64,000 bases of DNA from an uncultured bacterium (GCA_963725235.1 CAVRXN010000001.1:40041-104040), one strand, 5' to 3'. Shown: positions 695-54,797, numbered from the stretch's first letter. Translations and numbers: made by a program. Notes: generated by a model from the letters alone, not told the origin.

Positions 695-729
695 GAAAAT
701 TATAGTACCACAGGCCTACGCAAAAATCA

Positions 730-1167
730 CTACTTGTTGGCGCACGCTTTGCAGAGGCCGTAAAACTCGAGGGCGTGCTGGCGGATTTCGGCGAAATGGC
801 GCGAACCGCGCAGGACTTTTGTTTGGATTTCTTCGACGCCGCACTGTTCGACGTCTTCGACTCGGCCGCAGTGGAGGCAGATAAGATGATGATGTTCGGC
901 GAGATTGGTCAGCTCGTAGTGCGCATGGTTGTGGCGCAGGTCGATCGGTTTGATGAGGCCTCTTGCTTTGAATGCGCCGATGGTCCGGTAGACGGTTGCC
1001 TGGTCGATCGCGGACGACCCCGAGCGGGGGAGGGAATCGGCGACTTCTTGGGCGGCGAGCGGCCGTTTTGATTTATTAAATAATTCTAAAATCGCGAGTC
1101 GCGGGGCGGTCACGCTGAGGCGGTGGGCGCGGAGGAGTTGGGCTGGGTTGAGATGATTGTTTTTCAT
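730..1167 (-). CDS. fur: Fur-family metal-responsive transcriptional regulator
   Basis: ORF 730..1227; likely start is MKNNHLNPAQLL at 1167. Has a winged-helix N-terminus, then HHHLICLHCGRVEDV and a C-terminal CKAC, as is typical of Fur/Zur/PerR. Confidence 0.85.
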   Translation of the reverse strand: MKNNHLNPAQLLRAHRLSVTAPRLAILELFNKSKRPLAAQEVADSLPRSGSSAIDQATVYRTIGAFKARGLIKPIDLRHNHAHYELTNLAEHHHLICLHCGRVEDVEQCGVEEIQTKVLRGSRHFAEIRQHALEFYGLCKACANK

Positions 1168-25363: not shown

Positions 25364-25981
25364 TTAGAGCAATTCTTTTATCTTCTCCCTGTACACCGCC
25401 TCGATATCCCGTTCGAATTCCGAGACCGTAGCATAATTATTTGTTAGTTTTATATCCGCCCGCGAGCCAATTTCAGGAATGAAAATCTCGTTGGGCTGGC
25501 GATTCAGTTCGGCGAACTGCTCGCGGGTCGTCGTGGCTTCCCCGGAGCGGTTGCGGGCGACGAGTCGGGCGTAGCGATGGTCGTCGTCGGCGAAAATATA
25601 AACTGTGACGCTTTTGACGCCGTCCGCAGGAAATTCTTTCATCATTTTTTCATCAACGTCCCAGCGCATGCCGTCGAGGATGCCAACGTCTGCGGGATTT
25701 TTTAATAATCGGGCTTTGACGGCGCGTGCGAGAACGCCCGGCGGGAATCCGGGCGTGGCACCGTCCGGACCACCACCTGGCCGCTGCATGATCTGCGCGA
25801 GCATCTGCTCGTTCGCGCGCCCGTGCGGCATGCCCCAGAGGTCGAGCGTGTCGCGCAGGATGTCCGAGAAGCGATGGCGGCTGACCGTCACGCCGTCGGC
25901 GTGGAACAATTCTTCGAGCTTGATTGCGACCGTTTCTTTTCCGGCGAGCGGCAGGCCGGCGAGGCCGACGACGAGTTTCAT
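25364..25981 (-). CDS. P-loop nucleotide/nucleoside kinase-like protein
   Basis: MKLVVGLAGLPLAGKETVA (Walker A-like) and a small-kinase-sized 205 aa. Exact family uncertain. Confidence 0.6.
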   Translation of the reverse strand: MKLVVGLAGLPLAGKETVAIKLEELFHADGVTVSRHRFSDILRDTLDLWGMPHGRANEQMLAQIMQRPGGGPDGATPGFPPGVLARAVKARLLKNPADVGILDGMRWDVDEKMMKEFPADGVKSVTVYIFADDDHRYARLVARNRSGEATTTREQFAELNRQPNEIFIPEIGSRADIKLTNNYATVSEFERDIEAVYREKIKELL

Positions 25982-26457
25982 GATGTTTTAATGGTGCCTA
26001 CGGCATCAATTGCCGTTTTGGCATAGTGCTTAATATTTTTACGAATGTCATATTGTGATGAATTTAAATCATCTTTTGTAAACCAGAGTATTTCATCGCT
26101 GACCTCGGTTGCTCCCTGCTGGATGATATCATTCATCGCTTCTGCGAAATAAATAAAACTGATGTGTTCGTGATGCTCGTTGACTCGATGTCGATTCAAG
26201 AAAGCTGGCGGAATGAGGCTTATCGTGCCGTCAAGAATATTTTTCTCATCGCCACGTGTATCCCATAGTTTGATTACGAGGCCGACCTCTTCTTTAACTT
26301 CTCGAATCGCAGCTTCGTTTGGGTCTTCATTGAGCTCAACATGGCCGCCCGGTGGTAGCCACATTTTGTATTTGTCGTGCTTTCGCAAAAGTACCTTGCC
26401 ACGGAAAACAATAAAAGTGTCTGCTGTGAAGTCGATTTTTTCATGGATGTGCGGCAT
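25978..26457 (-). CDS. Nudix hydrolase
   Basis: Start MPHIHEKIDF at 26457. Nudix box GGHVELNEDPNEAAIREVKEEVGL. 4-nt overlap with the downstream kinase-like gene. Confidence 0.85.
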   Translation of the reverse strand: MPHIHEKIDFTADTFIVFRGKVLLRKHDKYKMWLPPGGHVELNEDPNEAAIREVKEEVGLVIKLWDTRGDEKNILDGTISLIPPAFLNRHRVNEHHEHISFIYFAEAMNDIIQQGATEVSDEILWFTKDDLNSSQYDIRKNIKHYAKTAIDAVGTIKTS

Positions 26458-26486
26458 GGCTCTATGGTAGAATATTTGCAATCATT

Positions 26487-28076: not shown

Positions 28077-28316
28077 ATGAAAACGGCCTCAAAGATGAAA
28101 TTTCGCCAGTCGCTCTTTTGGGATGTGGATCCGAAGACGATTGATCCCAAGAAAAATGCGGTGTATATTATCGAGCGGATTTTGGATTTTGGGAATGACG
28201 ACGAAGTGCGTTGGATGGCGAGGACCTATTCGCCGCGGCTGATTAAAAAAGTAGTGGCAACGTCTCGGGTGCTTCATCAAAAGTCGAAATCGTTGTGGTC
28301 ATTGATATATGCATGA
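28077..28316 (+). CDS. small protein upstream partner of the AbiEii-like gene (79 aa)
   Basis: ORF track. TGGTATAAT lies 7 nt upstream. The stop overlaps the next ATG (ATGA). Confidence 0.6.
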   Translation: MKTASKMKFRQSLFWDVDPKTIDPKKNAVYIIERILDFGNDDEVRWMARTYSPRLIKKVVATSRVLHQKSKSLWSLIYA

Positions 28317-28987
28317 AATCGCCGGCTGCGAGTGGAAAGTTATTCTTAAATGTTTTACCGCCGGTAACGCGGCGGGCTTTTGATGAAATTCAAAATCTGA
28401 AATTGCTTGCGAGCGGAGGGTGGTATCTTGCGGGCGGTACGGCGCTTGCACTTCAAGCAGGCCATCGACAATCCGTGGACTTAGATTTTTTTACGCCGGA
28501 GAAAGCATTGAATGAATCGGCAATCGAACGGCGATTGCTTGCGAGCCATCACTGGTCAACCGGATTTATTGAGCAGGGAACAATTTATGGAAAATTTCTC
28601 GACGCCAAAGCCAGCTTTATCTCGTGTCCCTTTTTTGTGCCCGCTGAACCATTTATTACATGCGGCACGATCAGGATTTTATCGGAGCGTGACATCGCTG
28701 TTATGAAAATTATCGCGATGAGCCAGCGCGGGCGTAAACGCGACTTTGTCGACTTATATTGGTACTGCCAGAACCGCGAGCCGCTGCTCGATGTTATTCG
28801 TCGCGTGCCTAAGCAATACCCAGGGCAGGAGCATAATATTCCGCATTTCATTAAGAGCGTTACTTATTTCGATGATGCGGAAGCTGATCCGATGCCGAAA
28901 ATTTTCTTTGATGCGACATGGAGCGGTGTCAAATCTTTTTTCAAGAAAGAAGCGAAAGCAATTACCAAACAATTGTTGTTATCATAA
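28313..28987 (+). CDS. nucleotidyltransferase, AbiEii/DUF1814-like toxin family
   Basis: WYLAGGTALALQAGHRQSVDLDFFTPE matches the family's GG-AL...HR-S-DLDF nucleotidyltransferase motif as I recall it. 224 aa. Confidence 0.65.
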   Translation: MKSPAASGKLFLNVLPPVTRRAFDEIQNLKLLASGGWYLAGGTALALQAGHRQSVDLDFFTPEKALNESAIERRLLASHHWSTGFIEQGTIYGKFLDAKASFISCPFFVPAEPFITCGTIRILSERDIAVMKIIAMSQRGRKRDFVDLYWYCQNREPLLDVIRRVPKQYPGQEHNIPHFIKSVTYFDDAEADPMPKIFFDATWSGVKSFFKKEAKAITKQLLLS

Positions 28988-28989
28988 AC

Positions 28990-31900
28990 ATGGCAGAGAT
29001 CGATCCAAAGCAATATAACCCACGCGAAATTGAGGCGAAGTGGCAGAAAAAGTGGCTGGATGAGAAGGTTTTTGCTGCGCATGATGAGTCCGCGCCGGGC
29101 ACCGCCGCGAAGCCGAAATATTATCAGCTCGAAACGTTTCCGTATCCATCGGGCGCGGGTTTGCACGTTGGCCATCCGAAGGGTTACATTGCCGAGGATA
29201 TTCACGCGCGGTTTATGCGAATGGGCGGCGATCCGACCGCGCGCGGTGGCGTTGGCAAACCACGCGAAGTTTTGTACACCATGGGCTGGGATGCGTTTGG
29301 TTTGCCGACGGAGAACTATGCGATAAAAGTTGGCAAGACGCCGCAGGAGGTGACGCAGGAGAATACTGATAATTTTCGCCGACAGGTGCGAATGTTTGGT
29401 TTGTCGTACGATTGGGATCGCGAGATCAATACCTCGCAGCCGGATTATTATAAGTGGACGCAGTGGTTGTTTATTAAATTGTTTGAGCGTGGGCTGGCAT
29501 ATCGCAAGGCGGCTCGCGTCAATTGGTGCCCGGTTGACCAAACGGTTTTGGCGAATGAGCAGGTGATCAATGGGCATTGCGACCGTTGCGGTAGTGAAAT
29601 CGAGGAGCGCGATATGGAGCAGTGGTTTTTCAAGATTACGGATTACGCGGATCGGTTGCTGGAAGATCTCGACGGTCTTGATTGGCCCGCAGCAACGATC
29701 AAGCGGCAGGAAGATTGGATTGGGAAGAGCGAGGGTGCGGAGATAGAATTCTCTTTGTCGGATAAGCATCATTACGTTTTATTGCACGGATTTACTGGAT
29801 CTCCGGATAATAATTTTTTTCCATGGTTGAAAAAGACGCTCGAAAAGCAGGGGCATACTGTTGAGGTGCCATCTTTGCCAAATACTGATGACCCGGATGT
29901 ATATGAGCAGGTTAAATTTGTTTTGGATAATTGTCATTTTGATGAAAGTACAATTATAGTCGGGCATAGTTTAGGAGCGGTCGTTGCCTTGAAAGTTCTG
30001 GAGCAATTACCGAAGCCTATTTTCAAAACCGTTTTAGCGGCTGGTTTTGCAGAGCCGGGCTTCAAAGATCATGATCGTCCATTCGAAAATAAGTTCGATT
30101 GGAAGTTTGATTTCGCCAGAATTAAAGAGAATGCTCGTGATATTATTCTTTTGCGTGACGTGAACGATACCGCGGTTAAAGCTGAACAGATCAACCATCT
30201 CCATAATTGGGTGGGTGGTATTATAAAAGATATTACTGCGAAAGAGGATCATTTTTGCGCACTTGAAGAGACAGAAATTTTAAAAGCTGCGTTAGATGCA
30301 GTCATAGTTTTCACGACCCGACCAGATACATTATTTGGCGTAACTTATCTCGTGCTTGCGCCAGAGCATCCAGTGGTTACGCGCGTTATATCGCGACTTG
30401 AAAATAAGAGTGACGTACAGAAGTATATTAATGAAACATCACACAAAACGGAGCGAACTCGGCAGGAAGATGCGAAGGATAAGACTGGCGTCGAGTTGAA
30501 AGGCGTGAAGGCGATCAACCCGGCGAACGGCGAGGAAATTCCGATCTGGGTTGCGGATTACGTTTTAGGCTCATACGGAACCGGCGCGATTATGGCCGTG
30601 CCGGCGCATGATGAGCGCGATTTTGCATTTGCAAAGAAGTTTGGGTTGCCGGTGAATGATGTTCTTGAACCCGAAACCGGGCCGGTTTTGCCGAACGAAC
30701 AACCAAGGAAAAGTATCGTAGCTATCGTCGAAGATCCTGAAACAAAAAAATTTCTTACATTGAATTGGGGGTCCAAACTCGGAGGTACATTGTTTATTGG
30801 AGGCGGTAGGGAGGAAGGTGAGGATGAAGTGACTACGGCGATTCGAGAAATTTCTGAGGAGACGGGATATGCGCAAGTTGCTTTCATTGAGAAGACTGGA
30901 GTGATGCATCATCATTATTTTGCTTTCGCGAAAAATGTTTCCCGTAATATCGAGGTTATTGGTCTTCATTTTCGATTGACGGGAAAAGAGACTGTTGCAC
31001 CTCAGCGGGAAGAACAGGAGAAGTTTACGCCTGAATGGCTCAGTAAAGAAGAAGTTCTTGGCAGGATGGAGGATGAAAATCATTTATTAGCATTTCGAGA
31101 GCTAATTTTGGGCGAGATTTATACTGGAAAGGGTTTATTGAAAAATTCCGGCCAGTTCGACGGTCTTGATTCCGAAACCGCAAAATGGAAAATCACCGAA
31201 TTCGTTAAAGGCACCCGCAAAACGCAGTATAGAATTCGCGACTGGTCGGTTTCACGCCAGCGCTATTGGGGCGTGCCGATTCCGATGATTCATTGTCCGG
31301 CCTGCGGTATCGTACCAGTGCCGCTCGAGGAGCTGCCGGTCATTTTGCCGCCCCTCGCGGATTTTCGTCCGAAAGGTATGCCGCCGCTCGCCGCCGTGCC
31401 CGAGTTCATCAACGTTAAATGTCCGAAGTGCGGCAACGCAGAAGCGAAGCGCGATCCGGAAACGCTCGACACGTTCGTCGATTCGTCCTGGTACTATTTG
31501 CGCTACACTGATCCGCATAACGATGCGGCGATTTTCGATCCTGCGAAAGCGGCGCATTGGCTGCCAGTCGACCTCTATGTTATCGGTGCCGAGCACACGG
31601 TTTTGCATTTGCTCTACTCGCGCTTCATCACGAAGTTTTTGCAAGATGAAAAATTGATTAACTTTAGCGAGCCATTTTTGAAACTGCGGCATCAGGGGCT
31701 CATTCGCGGAACCGACGGTGCAAAAATGTCGAAGAGTAAAGGCAACGTCGTTAACCCCGACGAGATCGTTGCCGAATTTGGCGCGGATACGGTTCGGATG
31801 TATGAAATGTTCATGGGGCCATTTGAAGATGGTGCACCATGGGAGCCGAAAAGTATTCTGGGCATAGAACGATTTTTGAAGCGGTTTTGGCGCTATTTCC

Positions 31901-32457
31901 AAGAGCCCGTTGCCAGCAGCCAGCTATCGGCAGAAAAAGAGTCAAGCAAAATTTTACTTCACAAAACGATCAAAAAGGTTGGCGAAGACATCGCAGGATT
32001 TAAATTCAATACGGCGATCTCGGCATTGATGATTTTATTGAATCAACTGGAAACGGCGCAGACGCTCGCTATGGACGATATGAAATCTTTGTTAAAAATC
32101 ATCCATCCCTTCGCGCCGCATATGGCCCAGGAACTTTGGTCGCAGATGACGGCGGCGAACGGTACACCGTTAACCTATCTTGATTTCGAACCGTGGCCGC
32201 AGTATGATTCGGCGCTGATTCGCGAAGAGAAAGTACGGCTCGCGCTCCAAATAAATGGGAAAACGAAAGATGTTATTGAGGTCGCGGCGGATATGCTCGC
32301 AGGCGGCGGCAACATTGCAGGGGGCGACGAAGGTGCAGCCGAGGCAACCGCAAAGCGCCTCGCGCTCGAAAATGATAAGATTAAAAAGACATTAAATGGC
32401 GCTGAGCCGAAGAAGGTTATCTACGTTGATAAGCGGCTCGTGAATATTGTCATTTAA
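28990..32457 (+). CDS. leuS: leucyl-tRNA synthetase with two inserted extra domains (1155 aa)
   Basis: MAEIDPKQYNPREIEAKWQKKW; HVGHPKGY; WIGKSEGAEIEF; TTRPDTLFG; GTGAIMAVPAHDERD; RDWSVSRQRYWGVPIP; KMSKSKGN. Single uninterrupted frame. Confidence 0.95.
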   Translation: MAEIDPKQYNPREIEAKWQKKWLDEKVFAAHDESAPGTAAKPKYYQLETFPYPSGAGLHVGHPKGYIAEDIHARFMRMGGDPTARGGVGKPREVLYTMGWDAFGLPTENYAIKVGKTPQEVTQENTDNFRRQVRMFGLSYDWDREINTSQPDYYKWTQWLFIKLFERGLAYRKAARVNWCPVDQTVLANEQVINGHCDRCGSEIEERDMEQWFFKITDYADRLLEDLDGLDWPAATIKRQEDWIGKSEGAEIEFSLSDKHHYVLLHGFTGSPDNNFFPWLKKTLEKQGHTVEVPSLPNTDDPDVYEQVKFVLDNCHFDESTIIVGHSLGAVVALKVLEQLPKPIFKTVLAAGFAEPGFKDHDRPFENKFDWKFDFARIKENARDIILLRDVNDTAVKAEQINHLHNWVGGIIKDITAKEDHFCALEETEILKAALDAVIVFTTRPDTLFGVTYLVLAPEHPVVTRVISRLENKSDVQKYINETSHKTERTRQEDAKDKTGVELKGVKAINPANGEEIPIWVADYVLGSYGTGAIMAVPAHDERDFAFAKKFGLPVNDVLEPETGPVLPNEQPRKSIVAIVEDPETKKFLTLNWGSKLGGTLFIGGGREEGEDEVTTAIREISEETGYAQVAFIEKTGVMHHHYFAFAKNVSRNIEVIGLHFRLTGKETVAPQREEQEKFTPEWLSKEEVLGRMEDENHLLAFRELILGEIYTGKGLLKNSGQFDGLDSETAKWKITEFVKGTRKTQYRIRDWSVSRQRYWGVPIPMIHCPACGIVPVPLEELPVILPPLADFRPKGMPPLAAVPEFINVKCPKCGNAEAKRDPETLDTFVDSSWYYLRYTDPHNDAAIFDPAKAAHWLPVDLYVIGAEHTVLHLLYSRFITKFLQDEKLINFSEPFLKLRHQGLIRGTDGAKMSKSKGNVVNPDEIVAEFGADTVRMYEMFMGPFEDGAPWEPKSILGIERFLKRFWRYFQEPVASSQLSAEKESSKILLHKTIKKVGEDIAGFKFNTAISALMILLNQLETAQTLAMDDMKSLLKIIHPFAPHMAQELWSQMTAANGTPLTYLDFEPWPQYDSALIREEKVRLALQINGKTKDVIEVAADMLAGGGNIAGGDEGAAEATAKRLALENDKIKKTLNGAEPKKVIYVDKRLVNIVI
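29752..30300 (+). other. in-frame insertion in leuS: alpha/beta serine-hydrolase domain (YdeN/RBBP9-like)
   Basis: HYVLLHGFTGSPDNNFFPWL...TIIVGHSLGAVVALK (GxSxG, 29962-29976)...LLRDVNDTAV...KEDHFCALE. It replaces an approximately 10-aa linker of E. coli LeuRS. AT-richer than the flanks. Confidence 0.75.
30700..31125 (+). other. in-frame insertion in leuS: Nudix domain
   Basis: Perfect Nudix box GGREEGEDEVTTAIREISEETGY at 30802-30870. The block lies between FAKKFGLPVNDV and GKGLLKNSGQFDGL of the LeuRS editing/connective region. Confidence 0.8.
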
Positions 32458-42212: not shown

Positions 42213-43299
42213 TACATCGGTGACACTCTGGTGTTGCCCGATGACCTACAAACTACGGATCAAAAATAGCGGCAAAACGAGGTATGCTGGGCACAACATG
42301 CCTACCTCCCATATCCTGCCGGGGGCGATGGAACTCGCCCGCATTCCAACCCTCAGCCGCGAAGCCAAGAAGCGTCTGGACTGGTTTGATTTCTACCGGG
42401 CAAACAAAGAGAATGCGGCGTTGACCTGCCGCCACTTCGGCATCAGCCGGGAATGTTTTTACGAATGGAAGCGGAGATATGATCCATTCAACCTCTCATC
42501 ACTCGAGGAGAAAAGCCGTGCGCCCAAGAAGACGCGAACGTGGGAAGTGTCACGAATTGAAGAGTTCCGCATCCTGCGTCTGCGTCGCGCCCACATCCGC
42601 TGGGGCAAGATGAAGCTCAGGATTCTGTACGGGCAGGAATATGGCACGCCCATCTCGTCGTGGAAAATCCAGCGAGTGATCGAAAAGCATCAGCTGTATT
42701 TCCATCCGGCGAAGAACGAGAAGCTTGCCAAGAAACGTAAGCAGAACCAGCCCAAAAAACGCATCACGGAGCTCAAGAAGGAGCAACGTGCGGGATTTCT
42801 CGTGGCACTCGACACCGTCGTGCGGCATACGGCCGGACTCAAGCGATATATCCTCACGGGGATCGACGTCCACTCGAAAATCGCCTTTGCGCGGATGTAT
42901 CCGGGGCACGGGTCGAACCATGCGGCTGATTTCCTGAAGCGGATCAATTACCTGTTTGATGCGAAGATCGAGAATCTCCAGACGGACAATGGCAGCGAGT
43001 TTGCAAAATATTTCCGGGAGGCAGCTGCAGAACTTTCGTTGCCGCATTACCATTCGCGTCCGAGAACGCCCAAAGACAATCCCGTGGACGAACGGTTCAA
43101 TGGCACCATCGAGCGGGAATTTCTCCAGCTGGGCAACATGAGTACCGACTGCGATGCCTTCAATCGAAAGATGACCGAGTGGCTGATCGAATACAATTTC
43201 AAGCGTCCCCATCAGACCCTTGGCTACGAGGTACCGGTCGAGTACCATTACAAGAACCAGAAAGTGTCACCGATGTACCCGTCCAGCACAGCCACTTGA
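42213..43299 (+). mobile_element. IS element (IS481-like, single DDE/rve transposase)
   Basis: Perfect 15-bp terminal inverted repeats: TACATCGGTGACACT (42213-42227) and AGTGTCACCGATGTA (43263-43277). The transposase frame runs 22 nt past the right repeat. No target duplication seen. Confidence 0.75.
42298..43299 (+). CDS. IS481-family-like transposase (HTH plus rve integrase core)
   Basis: N-terminal HTH (CRHFGISRECFYEWKRRY), then a DDE core with LQTDNGSEF and FKRPHQTLGY. Confidence 0.85.
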   Translation: MPTSHILPGAMELARIPTLSREAKKRLDWFDFYRANKENAALTCRHFGISRECFYEWKRRYDPFNLSSLEEKSRAPKKTRTWEVSRIEEFRILRLRRAHIRWGKMKLRILYGQEYGTPISSWKIQRVIEKHQLYFHPAKNEKLAKKRKQNQPKKRITELKKEQRAGFLVALDTVVRHTAGLKRYILTGIDVHSKIAFARMYPGHGSNHAADFLKRINYLFDAKIENLQTDNGSEFAKYFREAAAELSLPHYHSRPRTPKDNPVDERFNGTIEREFLQLGNMSTDCDAFNRKMTEWLIEYNFKRPHQTLGYEVPVEYHYKNQKVSPMYPSSTAT

Positions 43300-49377: not shown

Positions 49378-52203
49378 TTATGCACAGCCGTCACAAATAG
49401 TATCTTCTGATGGATCGCTCGGAGGCATGATGGCTGGGCGTTTTTTGGCTGACTGAGCGGCTTGGGTTTGGGTCGGCTGGCTTGGCTGTATCGGCTGTAC
49501 GAATGATGCTGAGGCGAGTTCTATTTTTGGTTGTTCCATTTTCGGCTGATTAGCGGTTACAGGGGTTGTCGCCGTAGTCACGCTGCCTGTCGCGATCGCC
49601 GGGTTCATCCCGGTGACCTGCGAGAAGCCGACCGGCTTGCCGCCTGCGGGCTTCTGTTGGGCCGCTTGGGCAATTTGCGCCGGAGTCGCTTGTACCGATG
49701 TAGCCGCGGTTGCACTAACCTCTGCGGGCGCCTCAGCCGGCGCGTCCGCAGTTTTCGATTCCGAGATCATCGTCGCAACCGTAACCTGTTCCTCGACGAC
49801 AACGGTTTCAACAACTGACGACATCACCGACGCAAATCCTTTCTTGCCCATCGCCTGGCCTTTGTTGACGTTGACGGTCGACTGTTCGGCGGTATGCCGC
49901 GGCTTCATGTGGAGGTAGTACGTCGTCTTCACGCCTTTCCGCCACGCGGTCGAATAAATTTCCATCGTTTCGCCGATATCGCGCGTTTCGAGATACATGT
50001 TGCGCGAGAGCGCTTGGTCGATCCATTTCTGCGCGCGCGCGGCGACTTCGATGAACGCGCCGGGCGACGTGCTGAATGAGGTCTTATAAATATCTTTGAT
50101 GTGCTGGGGGATTGCTGAAATATTTGTTAGGTCGCCCTGTTCGGCGATGATATCTTCGCGAACTTTCTCCCAGAAGCCCATATTTTTCAAATCATTCACC
50201 AGGTTGTGGTTAAGGTCGAGATATTTTCCGGAAATTTTATTCCGCGAGAAGACCTGCGCGAAGCGGGGATCGATGCCCGGCGTTGTGCCGGCAACGAGGC
50301 CGATGTTCGCGTTCGGTGCGACGGCCATCAACGTTGCGTTGCGCATGCCCTTCTTCGACTTTCGCGCGCAGTGCATCCCAATTCAATCCGCGATAGCGCT
50401 GAACCTTTCGAAACCGTGAGCGGCACGCCGCGATCGGCTTCGAGGACTTCGATCGTATCCATCGGCACCATGCCTTTCGACCATCCCGAGCCCTGGAAGT
50501 TTTTGTATGAACCGCGCTCGGCGGCGAGGTTGGCGCTTTCATCGATCGCAACGTAGCTTACGAATTCGAACACTTTGTCGGCGAAATCCCACGCATGTTC
50601 CGTGTCGTATCCCATGCCGAGCTGTTCGAGCATGTCGCAGAATCCCATGACGCCCATGCCGATCGCGCGGTTCTCCTGGTCGGAGCGCGTCGCTTCTTCG
50701 ATGCCCATCTTATTGATGTCGATCAGGTTGTCGAGCTGGCGGACGGCATAGCGGATGCTCTCTTCGAGTTTTTCCCAGTCGATTTGTTTGTGGTTGACGT
50801 GGACGGCGAGGTTCAGAGAGGCGAGGTTGCAGACGGCGATGTTGTCTTTATCCTGCGGGAGGCAGATTTCGGTGCAAAGGTTCGACATATGGATCGTGCC
50901 GGTATTGTTGTTCAGTGCGCGCAGATTGATCGCGTCTTTCCATGTGAGCCAGGGATGCGATGTGCCCTGCAGCTGGACCAAAATCTGGCGATATTGCTCT
51001 TCGGCTGGCACTTTCTTGAAAACGCGCAGTTTGCCGGCTTCGGCCATCTCTATATATTCCGCATAGCGCTTGCTGAACGCGGCGCCGTAGAGCTCGACGA
51101 GGTCCGGCGTTTCTTTCGGGTCGAACATGTACCACATTTCATGGTTTTCGACGCGCCGCATGAACTCATCGGAGATAAACGCCGCCGTGTCGGCCGTGCG
51201 CATGCGCATGTAGTCGTCGCCGGCATTGTTCTTCCAGTCGAGGAATTCCGGGAAAATCGATGTGCCAGTTCTCCATATAGAAACAGAGCGCGCCTTTTTT
51301 CTTGCCGCCGCGCTGGACGGCGCGGATCGCGGTATCAATGATTTTTGCGAATGGCGTTGGGCCCGTCGATGCGCCGTTGTTCGATCCGAGCGGGGAACCG
51401 GTCGCGCGAAGTTTCGTTACGGACAGTCCGATGCCGCCGGAATATTTTGAAAGCATGATGACGTCATGGACGGATTTCGCGATATGTTCCATGTCATCTT
51501 CCATCTGCATGAGGTAGCAATTCGAAAGTGTTGGGCGCGTCGTGCCGGCGCCGAGGTTCGTCGAACCGGCGGCGAGATATTCAAGCTTCGACATCTTGCT
51601 GTAAAACTTTTTTGCCCAGAGCGTCGGATTTTTTTCATTGAACGAAAGTCCCATCGCAACGCGCATGAAAAAATATTGCGGCGTCTCGTTCGGTTTGCCA
51701 TCTTTTTTATCTTTCAACGAATAGCGATCGAGGAACGATGAAAGTCCGGCGTAGATGAAAATTCATCGCGGCCGAGGTCGAGAGCGGCCGCGAGTTCCTT
51801 CAGATTAAATTTTTCGAGCATCCGCGGATCGAGAATGTTCGCCTCGACGCCGCTTTTTATCCATTCCGGGAAAAATTCGCGATGTTTGCGCGCGAGGAGC
51901 GCCGGATTGTTCTCGTAATCTTCGAGGACGCGGCGATAAACCGTTTTTAGTAAGCAATCGCATCGCGACTTTATCGTATTCGATGTCTTCTTTTATATTT
52001 TGGACCGCCGCATTGATCGTCGCCTGATCCATTTCCTCCGTCGTGATGCCATCATAGAGCGTTAGGCGCGTTTCGGTTGCGATCTGCGTCACCATGCCGA
52101 TCGGATCTTCCATCCCGATGCACGCGCGTTCGATCGACCGGTTGATCATGTCGGCATTGAATGGTTCGCGCGTGCCGTCGCGCTTGGTGATGGTGAGCTC
52201 CAT
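49378..52203 (-). CDS. nrdA: class I ribonucleotide reductase alpha subunit, about 4 frame disruptions, long low-complexity C-terminal linker
   Basis: ATP-cone MELTITKRDGTREPFNADMI (start 52203), SNLCTEICLP, TTYYLHMKP, terminal ICDGCA cysteine pair. The pieces are ORFs 51805.., 51166.., 50328.. and 49378.., plus an unlisted stretch 51720-51960. Confidence 0.85.
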
Positions 52204-52303
52204 ACTCGTTTTTGGATTGATTAAAAGTTTGTTAACTCGACGTAAGAACATTTTACCACTAAACTGGTTATCCACAGCAAGTTCACGTATACTACTAGTA
52301 CCT

Positions 52304-53800
52304 ATGTCTGACAAAAATTCCAAAATCCCGACCATTTTCGTCGTTTTGGGGGTTACCGGCGACCTGACGGCCAAGAAAATCGCCCCGGCGCTTTTCAATT
52401 TATTTGAGAAAAAAATGCTGCCCCCGAAATTCGAGTTCGTCGGTGTTTCGCGCCGGGATTGGGGCGACGCGGAACTGCGCGAACATATCCGGGCGATCCT
52501 GCATGTCAAAGCGCCGCATGCGAGCGAGGCGTCGATTGGAAAATTTCTGAAGCTCGTTACGTATGGCAAGGTTCGGTTCGATACGCCGGGCGATTATGAA
52601 GTGTTGAATGATAAGTTGCGCGCAATCGATGATCGCTGGGGTATGTGTTCGAACAAATTATTTTACTTGTCGGTGCCGCCAGAATTTTATGATGGCATTT
52701 TTGAAAACCTGCATGCGAGCGGGCTGACTGCTCCGTGTTCGCCGGAAGAAGGATGGACGCGCGTCGTTGTTGAAAAACCATTCGGGAGCGATGAGAAGAC
52801 GGCGAAAGAGCTCGACGAGCATCTCGCGCGGCTGTTCCGCGAGGAGCAGATCTATCGTATCGACCATTATTTGGCGAAAGAGATGTTGCAGAACATTCTT
52901 GCATTCCGGTTTGGGAATAATTTGTTTGAACGCGAGTGGGGTGCCGAGACCATCGAGGCGATTAATATAAAATTGCATGAGAGCATCGGCGCGGAAGATC
53001 GCGGAAGTTTTTATGAGAACGTTGGCGCGCTTCGCGATGTTGGACAAAATCATTTGTTGCAAATGCTCGCGCTCGTCACGATGGAGCGGCCGAACGGATA
53101 TACGGTTACGGATGGCGGCAGTGCCGCCGGTAATTCGCGGGCGATCCGCGAAGCGCGCGCAAAATTATTGGAGCAATTGGTCATTCCATCTGTTCGCGAT
53201 GCTGCCGCGAATTCTTTTCGTGCACAATATGAAGGTTATAGAAAAATTAAAGGTGTTGCATCGCGGTCGGATGTTGAAACCTATTTTCGCGTGAAAGGAT
53301 TTTTGTCGGGTGAGCGATGGGAAGGTGTGCCGATCGCGATGGAATCCGGTAAGCGATTGGGGAAGCCGTTGAAAGAAATTGAGGTTGTCTTTAAAGGTGG
53401 AACAAACCGCATCATTATCCATCTTGAACCGAAAGAGGGTATCACGATAACTTTTATTTCGAAAAAACCGGGGCATTCGCTCGCCGTCGAAGAGCGGTCA
53501 TTGTCGTTTGATTTTCGGGAGGGTGCTCCCAGCGGCAGCGTTCAATATGTCGCAGAATATGAAAAATTAATTTTGGACTGCATCGCCGGCGACCAGACGT
53601 TATTCATTTCGAGTGAGGAAATACGGGCGATGTGGCGCTTTACGGATCCTTTTATAGAGGCGTGGGGCAAAAACCTCGTACCGTTGCGTCGGTATGCCCC
53701 GGACTCTGCTGCTATCGCGGCGGAAGCAGCGGTTTTAATGGATCAACAACGGCGGCAGGCGGCGGCTCGACGGTTGGGCGGTGCGCCCTCTATTAATAGA
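52304..53800 (+). CDS. zwf: glucose-6-phosphate dehydrogenase (reads through into gnd)
   Basis: MSDKNSKIPTIFVVLGVTGDLTAKK, VVEKPFG, IYRIDHYLAKE signature. Confidence 0.9.
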
Positions 53801-54797
53801 GTGATCGGATTGTATGGCCTGGGGAAAATGGGCGCCGGGCTCGCGCGGAACATGCATGACCATGGCTGGCACGTTGTCGTTGCAAATCGATCATTGGAGT
53901 CGGTCGCGACACTCGAAGCAGAAGGATTCGATGGGGCTCGAACGACGGAGGAGTTATTGGAAAAAATTTCGTTATCGCCTTCAACGGGCACATCACGCGC
54001 GCCGCGCGTTGTGTGGTTGATGATAACCGCCGGCAAACCGGTTGATGAATTTTTGTTTGGGAAGTCGGGCGCGCGCGGCAACGGCGGCTTGGCTGCTCAG
54101 TTACGCCGCGGCGATATCGTTATCGATGGCGGCAACTCATTCTTCGAAGATTCATCGCGCCGCGCAAAATTGCTCGCTCGCCGCGGTATAAAGTTTTTGG
54201 ACGTTGGCGTTTCGGGCGGACCGGCCGGCGCGCGCAACGGTGCATGTATGATGATCGGCGGCGACCGGGTTTCGTTCGCAGCGCTCGAAGAACTTTTTGC
54301 GGTGACCTGTGTTTCTGGCGGCTACGGATATTTCGGTTTGGCTGGCGCGGGGCATTTCGTGAAAATGGTACATAACGGCATCGAGTACGGCATGATGCAA
54401 TCGATCGCGGAAGGTTTTGCGCTGATGAAACGCGCGCCGTTCAAGCTCGACCTCGCGCGCGTCGCGCATCTTTATAACCATGGTAGTGTCATCGAGTCGC
54501 GGTTGGTGGGATGGATGGAAAACGCGTATAAAAATTTTGGGCAGGATTTGAAAAATGTTTCGTCGTCTGTCGCATATACCGGAGAAGGCGAATGGACCGT
54601 GCAGCACCGGGAAAAAGTGGAAAATGAAATTGCCGGCGATCGAGGATTCGTTTAAGTTTCGGGTCGCGTCTGGCGCGTTGTCAAAAAAAGCGAAGCGGTC
54701 GCCCGGCGATGTCTACATGGGGAAAATTTTATCGGCACTCCGAAATCAATTCGGGGGACACTCGATCGAAAGCAAAAAGCGTATAATAAAGATATGA
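53801..54797 (+). CDS. gnd: 6-phosphogluconate dehydrogenase (short decarboxylating-like form), in frame with zwf, one frame disruption near 54600
   Basis: (V/M)IGLYGLGKMGAGLARNM, GAGHFVKMVHNGIEYGMMQ. The C-terminal LPAIEDSFKFRVAS...ILSALRNQFGGH continues in ORF 54555..54797. Confidence 0.8.

Follow-up and report, generated by a model that had tools for sequence, protein, structure and literature searches.

In a 64,000-nucleotide stretch of DNA from an uncultured bacterium (GCA_963725235.1, CAVRXN010000001.1:40041-104040; hereafter the window), the leuS gene is predicted to encode a functional bacterial-type leucyl-tRNA synthetase (LeuRS) of a Patescibacteria (candidate phyla radiation, CPR) organism, in which an autonomous and apparently catalytically competent hydrolase occupies each of two surface turns of the CP1 editing domain. 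The first turn (site A) carries a serine hydrolase of the YdeN/RBBP9 family (insert A) and the second (site B) a Nudix hydrolase (insert B). Judged by comparison with related proteins, this gene is one combination in a clade-wide modular cassette system, a typical member and no one-off. We lean, by a small degree, towards the view that the inserts are LeuRS-associated accessory "sanitising" hydrolases that were fused in repeatedly.

The leuS gene and its synthetase core

The reading frame of leuS is free of stop codons from 28918 to 32457 on the plus strand, and the ATG at 28990 is the start that both homologues and an independent gene call support. In the NCBIfam scan, the whole protein matched TIGR00396 (leuS_bact) with 931.1 bits (cut-off 548.4), and its best match of solved structure is the LeuRS of T. 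thermophilus (E = 2e-215). The family landmarks HVGH, EGAEIEF, TTRPDT, GTG...AHD, RDWSVSRQRYWG, the zinc module and KMSKS are all present and collinear. This agrees with the initial annotation, which had listed synthetase and editing landmarks in order along the 1155-residue product and whose quoted motifs we could all locate. Alignment with the T. thermophilus enzyme (1H3N/2BYT) is interrupted at two points only, which are the two inserts: residues 7–259, 438–569 and 710–922 align with T. thermophilus residues 2–239, 243–371 and 376–594. About 178 residues (nucleotides ~29767–30300) take the place of a 3-residue turn at site A, and about 140 residues (~30697–31116) that of a 4-residue turn at site B. 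Both turns fall inside the CP1 editing domain, which we take to span T. thermophilus residues 224–417. A full-length AlphaFold (AF2) model reached a predicted local distance difference test score (pLDDT) of 87.8 and a predicted template modelling score (pTM) of 0.76, with both inserts as confident as the synthetase core.

The comparison set consisted of the 120 LeuRS closest to the window's; wherever a source is named, it is a metagenome genome of Patescibacteria type. No insert class in this set has lost the editing motifs TTRxDT and AHD, and the only variation in TTRxDT is replacement of the proline by Ala, Val, Leu or Ser. Since the synthetic and editing sites are intact, the inserts would supplement editing and not substitute for it. 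The idea that the hydrolase replaces a degenerate editing site was ruled out by the conservation of both motifs in all classes.

The predicted serine hydrolase of insert A

Insert A taken in isolation scored 37.6 bits against the Pfam family PF06821 (Ser_hydrolase; gathering cut-off 22, E = 2.7e-9). When a profile of the insert A family was compared with the PDB, it retrieved B. subtilis YdeN (1UXO, E = 1.9e-28) and human RBBP9 (E = 2e-19). In the full-length model the segment from residue 255 to 440 alternates strands and helices with a pLDDT of 86–97, and it ends 2 residues from the T-rich editing motif. The initial annotation had described a GxSxG elbow followed by Asp and His in the YdeN/RBBP9 order and had expected a profile hidden Markov model search to return Ser_hydrolase; the Pfam match above the gathering threshold, the profile matches and the alignment bear it out on both counts.

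The putative triad (Table 1) is strongly conserved. Among the 30 site-A inserts of this type in LeuRS, the serine is present in 29 and the histidine in all; the acid is Asp in 27 and Glu in the remaining 3. The catalytic acid is more likely Asp393 than Asp390, because it is Asp393 that aligns with the corresponding residue of YdeN and of RBBP9 (Asp138).

The Nudix domain of insert B

Insert B matched PF00293 (NUDIX) in Pfam with 48.6 bits (cut-off 21.1, E = 1e-12). Modelled alone with AF2 it reached a pLDDT of 91.1, and a Foldseek search of the PDB with this model gave 520 matches at E ≤ 1e-3, all of those listed being Nudix proteins, with 2AZW at the top (template modelling (TM) score 0.77). 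The perfect Nudix box reported earlier, and the NUDIX family expected from a profile search of this segment, were thus both recovered, the latter above the gathering threshold. All three glutamates of the REuxEE motif are present in 53/53 Nudix inserts of LeuRS, and 47 of these match the complete box at every defined position.

Downstream of the box, insert B has a tyrosine in the X-loop (Tyr643) that is invariant in the window's Nudix lineage; a tyrosine at +16 to +18 occurs in 42 of the 53 Nudix inserts of all lineages. According to PMC5389931, which cites Dunn 1999, an X-loop tyrosine about 16–18 residues after the box correlates with hydrolysis of diadenosine polyphosphates (ApnA). The same source assigns a proline about 15–16 residues downstream to the ADP-ribose subgroup and the motif SQPWPFPQS to the NADH subgroup. 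The ADP-ribose proline is absent from positions +13 to +19 of the window's insert B, and the NADH-type QPWPFP was found in 0/53 LeuRS Nudix inserts. Neither sequence nor fold allowed insert B to be placed in a Nudix subfamily, since the proteins closest to it have mixed specificities.

The lineage to which insert B belongs appears tied to its host. All of its 80 best metagenomic relatives (80/80) lie inside LeuRS at site B. Within this lineage, identities of insert and core run in parallel (81/76, 72/72, 70/71, 64/69 and 51/53% for insert/core), so that the constraint on the insert would be as strong as on LeuRS itself. The window also contains a free-standing Nudix gene (25978–26481, minus strand), 2.5 kb upstream of leuS. 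Insert B as a recent duplicate of this gene was ruled out, as the two have only the Nudix box in common.

Table 1. Features of the leuS gene and its product, with positions counted from the first nucleotide of the window
Feature	Residues	Position (nt)	Strand	Basis or remark
leuS coding sequence, bacterial-type leucyl-tRNA synthetase	1155 + stop	28990..32457	+	Open reading frame, TIGR00396, independent gene call
N-terminal catalytic core to first CP1 strand	1-254	28990..29751	+	Pfam, T. thermophilus alignment, motifs
HVGH	59-62	29164-29175	+	Motif
EGAEIEF	248-254	29731-29751	+	Motif
Insert A (site A), YdeN/RBBP9-family alpha/beta serine hydrolase	255-440	29752..30309	+	PF06821, profile against PDB, model
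Insert A, strict extent against T. thermophilus	260-437	29767-30300	+	Alignment
Ser327, nucleophile, GHSLG elbow (residues 325-329)	327	29968..29970	+	Aligns with RBBP9 Ser75
Asp390 (LLRDVND), also conserved	390	30157-30159	+	D in 29/30 relatives
Asp393 ("VND" Asp of LLRDVND), probable catalytic acid	393	30166..30168	+	Aligns with RBBP9 Asp138
His421 (EDHFC), catalytic histidine	421	30250..30252	+	Aligns with RBBP9 His165
CP1 editing domain core	441-555	30310..30654	+	PF13603 at 193 bits
T-rich motif TTRPDT	442-447	30313-30330	+	Motif
GTGAIMAVPAHDERD	530-544	30577-30621	+	Motif; holds editing Asp541 (AHD)
Editing Asp541 of AHD	541	30610-30612	+	Motif
Insert B (site B), Nudix hydrolase domain	556-712	30655..31125	+	PF00293, AF2, Foldseek
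Insert B, strict extent against T. thermophilus	570-709	30697-31116	+	Turn = T. thermophilus residues 371-376
Nudix box GGREEGEDEVTTAIREISEETGY, GX5EX7REUXEEXGU	605-627	30802..30870	+	Perfect match
Tyr643, X-loop (HHHYFAF), 16 residues past Nudix box	643	30916..30918	+	Invariant in the window's Nudix lineage
C-terminal LeuRS part: CP1 end, zinc module, anticodon-binding and C-terminal domains	713-1155	31126..32454	+	Pfam, T. thermophilus alignment, motifs
GKGLLKNSG	713-721		+	Motif; LeuRS resumes after insert B
RDWSVSRQRYWG	750-761		+	Motif, in C-terminal LeuRS part
CPACG/CPKCG zinc module (CxxC...CxxC)		31294-31308, 31420-31434	+	Motif
KMSKS	912-916	31723-31737	+	Motif

Insert combinations among related synthetases

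Among the 120 closest LeuRS, site A holds either nothing (11–33 residues), a serine hydrolase of 185–192 residues (30 proteins), a Ham1/ITPase domain of 216–217 residues (12 proteins) or, in a single protein, an ASCH domain. Site B is empty, or is occupied by a Nudix domain of 157–180 residues (53 proteins) or by unassigned pieces of 83 and 131 residues. Every combination of site A and site B states was found. The shorter pieces at site B (131 residues in P0067 and P0078, 83 in P0009, which shares 88% core identity with the window's LeuRS) gave no match to the Nudix profile or to any listed Pfam family.

In all, LeuRS was found to take inserts at four sites: before "LDWP", at site A, at site B and next to the CPxCG zinc knuckle. 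Two proteins (P0118 and P0120, 1477 residues) have two tandem Nudix domains before "LDWP", making a total of three Nudix domains and one serine hydrolase per LeuRS; LeuRS with this domain set was also recorded at loci L038 and L072. The zinc-knuckle site is taken by the hydrolase in other lineages.

Cargo differs between close relatives. Cores 87–88% identical to the window's have no insert, Ham1 together with Nudix, or an 83-residue remnant. Parsimony scoring on a neighbour-joining tree of the 120 cores gave a minimum of 23 state changes for each site, a figure to be read as "many" and not as a number, given a quick tree of very similar cores. Across the set, identity of the Nudix domain is uncoupled from that of the core (rho −0.07; in one case the core is 88% and the Nudix domain 21% identical), which points to at least three Nudix lineages at the same LeuRS site.

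Relatives of insert A are encoded in 282 of the GTDB species genomes that were scanned, with many CPR groups represented among the best 80 of these. The initial annotation knew of no described LeuRS built in this way. The architecture is not singular: with 282 GTDB genomes, and 53 Nudix and 30 hydrolase carriers among the 120 closest relatives, it belongs to a common modular family, and the alignment to related LeuRS that had been proposed as a check shows both inserts widespread across Patescibacteria in many combinations. The relatives are named "class I tRNA ligase family protein" at NCBI, and some "non-canonical purine NTP pyrophosphatase". Nine bins labelled Woesearchaeota, "archaeon" or Gammaproteobacteria (L014, L018, L021, L036, L005, L032, L035, L043 and L073) also contain a bacterial-type LeuRS with a hydrolase insert. 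This would mean either mislabelled bins or transfer of the gene between CPR bacteria and other lineages.

Hydrolase relatives outside LeuRS

Homology searches of a word-indexed collection with each insert alone gave just 2 matches and 1, the free-standing protein P0121 among them; an exhaustive profile search with insert A returned 4545 relatives. The closest free-standing ones are 34–54% identical to the window's insert A, and free hydrolase genes adjacent to leuS have their nearest counterparts in sequence among site-A inserts (52–57% identity). About 10 close free-standing relatives were informative, and 6 of them lie beside leuS in an operon-like arrangement, in both gene orders and with LeuRS of bacterial and archaeal types. 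Three free hydrolase genes (P0121, P0129 and P0131) lie 37, 24 and 6 nt upstream of leuS, respectively. Two others (P0124 and P0168) follow leuS directly, overlapping or abutting its stop codon, in a Ham1-IMPase-...-LeuRS-hydrolase-Sua5 neighbourhood. The gene of P0138 is part of a co-directional, overlapping string at L172 4001–8549 (GCA_020049755.1) that reads serine hydrolase, serine hydrolase, YbaK-like tRNA_edit, Ham1 and archaeal-type LeuRS. This string, in an apparently archaeal genome, is an unfused counterpart of the LeuRS cargo set. Two free homologues of 219 residues in Saccharibacteria (L062 and L079) have no aminoacyl-tRNA synthetase adjacent to them.

Relatives of the hydrolase also occur within other tRNA-related proteins, namely AlaRS, ValRS, IleRS, TsaD and the formyltransferase Fmt, and hosts other than LeuRS are mostly enzymes acting on aminoacyl-tRNA or tRNA. 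Relatives inserted in or fused to AlaRS, ValRS, SecA, UvrA, TsaD, a formyltransferase, EngA/Der, adenylate kinase (Adk), an inositol-monophosphatase (IMPase)-family protein and a Nudix domain are P0175, P0170, P0156, P0191, P0178, P0199, P0200, P0244, P0241 and P0219. The IleRS of Saccharibacteria/Nanosynbacter (1200–1760 residues; L029, L055, L060 and 15 further loci) has one or, often, two YdeN-like domains flanking WTTTPWT. Their insertion point, about 12 residues before this motif, is topologically equivalent to site A of LeuRS. Additional IleRS cargo consists of a GNAT acetyltransferase in L029 and a low-molecular-weight phosphatase (LMW-PTP) in L060.

Base composition and junctions

The G+C content at third codon positions (GC3) is 0.355 in insert A and 0.363 in insert B. 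It is 0.618, 0.539 and 0.589 in the N-terminal, CP1 core and C-terminal segments of LeuRS, and 0.52–0.69 in nine other genes of the window. The inserts are therefore AT-rich at synonymous sites, and the earlier remark that they are AT-richer than their flanks survives a control for amino-acid composition. Together with the patchy distribution, GC3 supports the initial proposal that these in-frame, stop-free blocks are acquired modules. The same shift is seen in other species: at 56 of 58 LeuRS loci, GC3 of insert A lies below that of the surrounding core. Such a systematic difference appears to fit repeated lateral movement, though codon selection that is weaker beyond the conserved core might account for part of it. 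The notion that low GC marks a recent acquisition in this genome alone is tempered by these 56/58 loci.

No intein, Hint or homing-endonuclease domain was found in the Pfam scan at E ≤ 0.01, and the hydrolase and Nudix domains account for the inserts in full. At the insert junctions, a search for terminal repeats and mobile-element signatures gave only short, probably chance repeats and one of 22 nt. The latter is an imperfect direct repeat (82%) at 30658–30679 and 31159–31180, with one copy where insert B begins and the other 34 nt beyond its end, encoding DVLEPETG and DGLDSETA. It may be due to chance or be the trace of a cassette insertion.

Other genes in the window

A type IV toxin-antitoxin pair (28077–28987, plus strand), made up of a DUF6922 gene and a gene for an AbiEii-like nucleotidyltransferase toxin, lies directly upstream of leuS; the toxin stop codon lies 2 nt before the leuS start. 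An 853-residue fusion of glucose-6-phosphate dehydrogenase with a 6-phosphogluconate-dehydrogenase-type NAD-binding domain is encoded at 52094–54655 (plus strand). An open reading frame with helix-turn-helix and rve integrase-core domains (42220–43299, plus strand) is probably an insertion-sequence transposase.

Discussion

What might these hydrolases do in a synthetase whose own active sites are intact? The serine hydrolase would most likely cleave aminoacyl esters with a free alpha-amine. Candidate substrates are the 3' ends of mis-acylated tRNA, or aminoacyl-nucleoside and aminoacyl-nucleotide debris in the vicinity of the editing site. This idea of an extra aminoacyl-ester hydrolase comes from the position of the insert beside the editing pocket, from its link with a YbaK-like deacylase and from its preference for synthetases that edit. 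RBBP9 offers a mechanistic parallel. It removes N-terminal aromatic residues and requires a free alpha-amine (PMC8866121), and it was reported to activate valacyclovir, in which a nucleoside analogue is esterified with L-valine (Shenoy 2020, cited in PMC7730578). An aminoacyl ester on the terminal adenosine belongs to the same chemical class as this prodrug.

The Nudix domain would most likely hydrolyse adenine-containing dinucleoside polyphosphates or related by-products of amino-acid activation. ApnA molecules are side products of aminoacyl-adenylate chemistry, and their clearance by the Nudix domain is plausible on the basis of its sequence. Ham1, the alternative cargo of site A, also cleans nucleotide pools, which would give a general "sanitising" theme in organisms that scavenge building blocks. 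The initial annotation had proposed that two activities are coupled to the synthetase. The operon-like linkage with leuS and the Nudix lineage confined to LeuRS speak for such a coupling; mis-acylated tRNA and Ap4A, which it had named as substrates, stand as inference only. More tentatively, and with considerable doubt, the hydrolase could represent an unrecognised class of aminoacyl-tRNA or aminoacyl-nucleotide proofreading factors that CPR bacteria and DPANN-like archaea employ alongside class Ia synthetases, at times as a neighbour of leuS and at times as part of CP1, and which together with Nudix and Ham1 would form a LeuRS-centred hub sanitising amino-acid and nucleotide substrates.

Several observations weigh against a role of the inserts beside LeuRS. 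The substrates of both inserts are ones that we infer from distant relatives. That of the hydrolase is a weak guess: the alpha-amine ligands of RBBP9 (Ser76, Tyr99 and Glu108) correspond in insert A to Leu (of GHSLG), Phe (of AGF) and a variable position, so that the specificity of RBBP9 is not transferable. The nearest solved relatives of the Nudix domain are mixed (uncharacterised MutT/Nudix, CTP, Ap4A, ADP-ribose, RppH and AvrM14), and its X-loop tyrosine appears to fit the ApnA-hydrolase signature only as a correlate, insufficient as a criterion. The hydrolase was found at three different LeuRS sites; 83 of its top 150 relatives are free-standing, some of them near no aminoacyl-tRNA synthetase; and some of its remoter relatives sit within SecA, UvrA and EngA/Der or are fused to Adk or an IMPase-family protein. 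Its presence at several sites, in diverse hosts and as many free copies disfavours a strict geometric coupling.

Much of this evidence also speaks for a different explanation, namely that the inserts are autonomous housekeeping hydrolases lodged in loops where abundant, essential proteins tolerate them, and do no joint work with LeuRS. Tiny CPR genomes would gain co-expression and need fewer promoters, and the CP1 domain of LeuRS would be a tolerant place for insertions. The variety of cargo in the same loops (serine hydrolase, Nudix, Ham1, ASCH and unassigned pieces in LeuRS; GNAT and LMW-PTP in IleRS), the unaltered CP1 editing site, one distant hydrolase relative fused to a Nudix domain and the dehydrogenase fusion within the same window all agree with it. 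We nevertheless judge it rather unlikely, though viable: chance adjacency to one given gene would be well under 1%, yet 6 of the ~10 close free relatives share an operon-like arrangement with leuS; all 80 best relatives in the window's Nudix lineage sit in LeuRS; distinct Nudix lineages converge on one LeuRS site; and most other hosts act on tRNA or aminoacyl-tRNA. Another explanation is that the inserts are selfish or mobile cassettes that spread like inteins between homologous sites of essential genes, without splicing, and are hard to delete, their enzymatic role being secondary. The low GC3 of the inserts, striking in the window, the patchy distribution, the incongruence between insert and core similarity, the 22-nt repeat bracketing insert B, and conserved, essential hosts that include classic intein hosts (aminoacyl-tRNA synthetases, UvrA and SecA) point in this direction. 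It seems improbable to us, as the inserts lack intein, Hint and homing-endonuclease domains and clear terminal repeats, their catalytic residues are almost invariant, and the type-1 Nudix domain is conserved like the LeuRS core. Moreover, each class of host and site forms its own sequence cluster, as fits few insertions followed by inheritance, and the GC3 gap could partly stem from stronger codon selection at conserved core positions.

Loss of catalysis, with the inserts serving as structural or RNA-binding extensions of CP1, is very improbable: one relative has GHGLG in place of the elbow (P0022) and 6 of 53 Nudix boxes show E-to-Q or R-to-Q/A changes, but the window copies have a complete triad and a perfect box, and conservation is near total across the 30 and 53 relatives. 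The chance that leuS was joined chimerically to unrelated hydrolase genes is negligible. The source is a metagenome assembly and the inserts differ in composition from their flanks; however, the reading frame is kept across both junctions, which fall at conserved positions in loops, and the independent Logan assembly of run ERR11523662 gives a product identical over 1155 residues. As the same domain order also recurs in dozens of LeuRS from unrelated metagenomic samples, a chimeric join is excluded for practical purposes. On balance, accessory hydrolases associated with LeuRS remain the explanation that we narrowly prefer.

Compared with canonical bacterial LeuRS (T. thermophilus 1H3N/2BYT and E. 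coli 4AQ7), the window protein has the same motifs, zinc module and anticodon-binding domain in collinear order, but is 1155 residues long instead of ~800–880 and holds two enzymes in CP1 turns. Insert A belongs to the same small alpha/beta-hydrolase family as YdeN (1UXO) and RBBP9 (2QS9/7OEX), that of PF06821, with the same Ser-Asp-His order and GHS(L)G elbow. These proteins are free-standing, whereas insert A is embedded in a synthetase and is without the alpha-amine ligands of RBBP9. Insert B shares its fold with Nudix proteins 2AZW (E. faecalis), AvrM14 (8DP8) and human Ap4A hydrolase (4IJX) at TM scores of 0.62–0.77, but is only 19–22% identical to the nearest solved ones and comes from a lineage found only within LeuRS. 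The nearest curated recognition of such a protein is IleRS with GNAT (NCBIfam NF040702, "ileS_w_GNAT"), a class Ia synthetase with an extra catalytic domain. The Saccharibacteria IleRS combines GNAT with the same hydrolase family as insert A, placed just before the T-rich editing motif. The curated form differs from the LeuRS case in synthetase and cargo. NCBIfam has no curated model for the LeuRS form with Ser_hydrolase and Nudix.

The concept of a hydrolytic module fused to a synthetase or separate from it is known from the editing factors YbaK/ProXp (PF04073), AlaX and the ProRS INS domain. Insert A differs from these by its fold and its serine-nucleophile mechanism, and neither YbaK/ProXp (PF04073) nor tRNA_SAD/AlaX matched the whole protein or either insert in Pfam and NCBIfam. 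No editing factor with an alpha/beta-hydrolase fold was found in the searched literature. Inteins likewise sit in frame at conserved positions of essential proteins, with a patchy distribution and atypical composition. Unlike inteins, the inserts remain in the mature protein with an active site of their own and have no Hint or homing-endonuclease domain. A literature search, with most subscription-journal papers outside its reach, found no earlier description of LeuRS with these inserts. The system thus seems undescribed, although its sequences are public under generic names.

Extra domains are well known in eukaryotic synthetases. To our knowledge, catalytic enzymes nested in a synthetase editing domain are absent from the textbook picture. 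Here up to four accessory enzymes per LeuRS are swapped combinatorially among close relatives and also occur as operon partners of leuS. The naming of LeuRS after its cargo, as "non-canonical purine NTP pyrophosphatase", is a source of mis-annotation. The insertion points provide a natural map of permissive CP1 sites that is possibly useful for engineering. If the hydrolase acts on aminoacyl esters, the alpha/beta-hydrolase would join the short list of proofreading folds, and bacterial proteins of the YdeN/RBBP9 type would gain a testable role. For the Patescibacteria, these synthetases illustrate clearly the way in which housekeeping activities are packed into ultra-small genomes.

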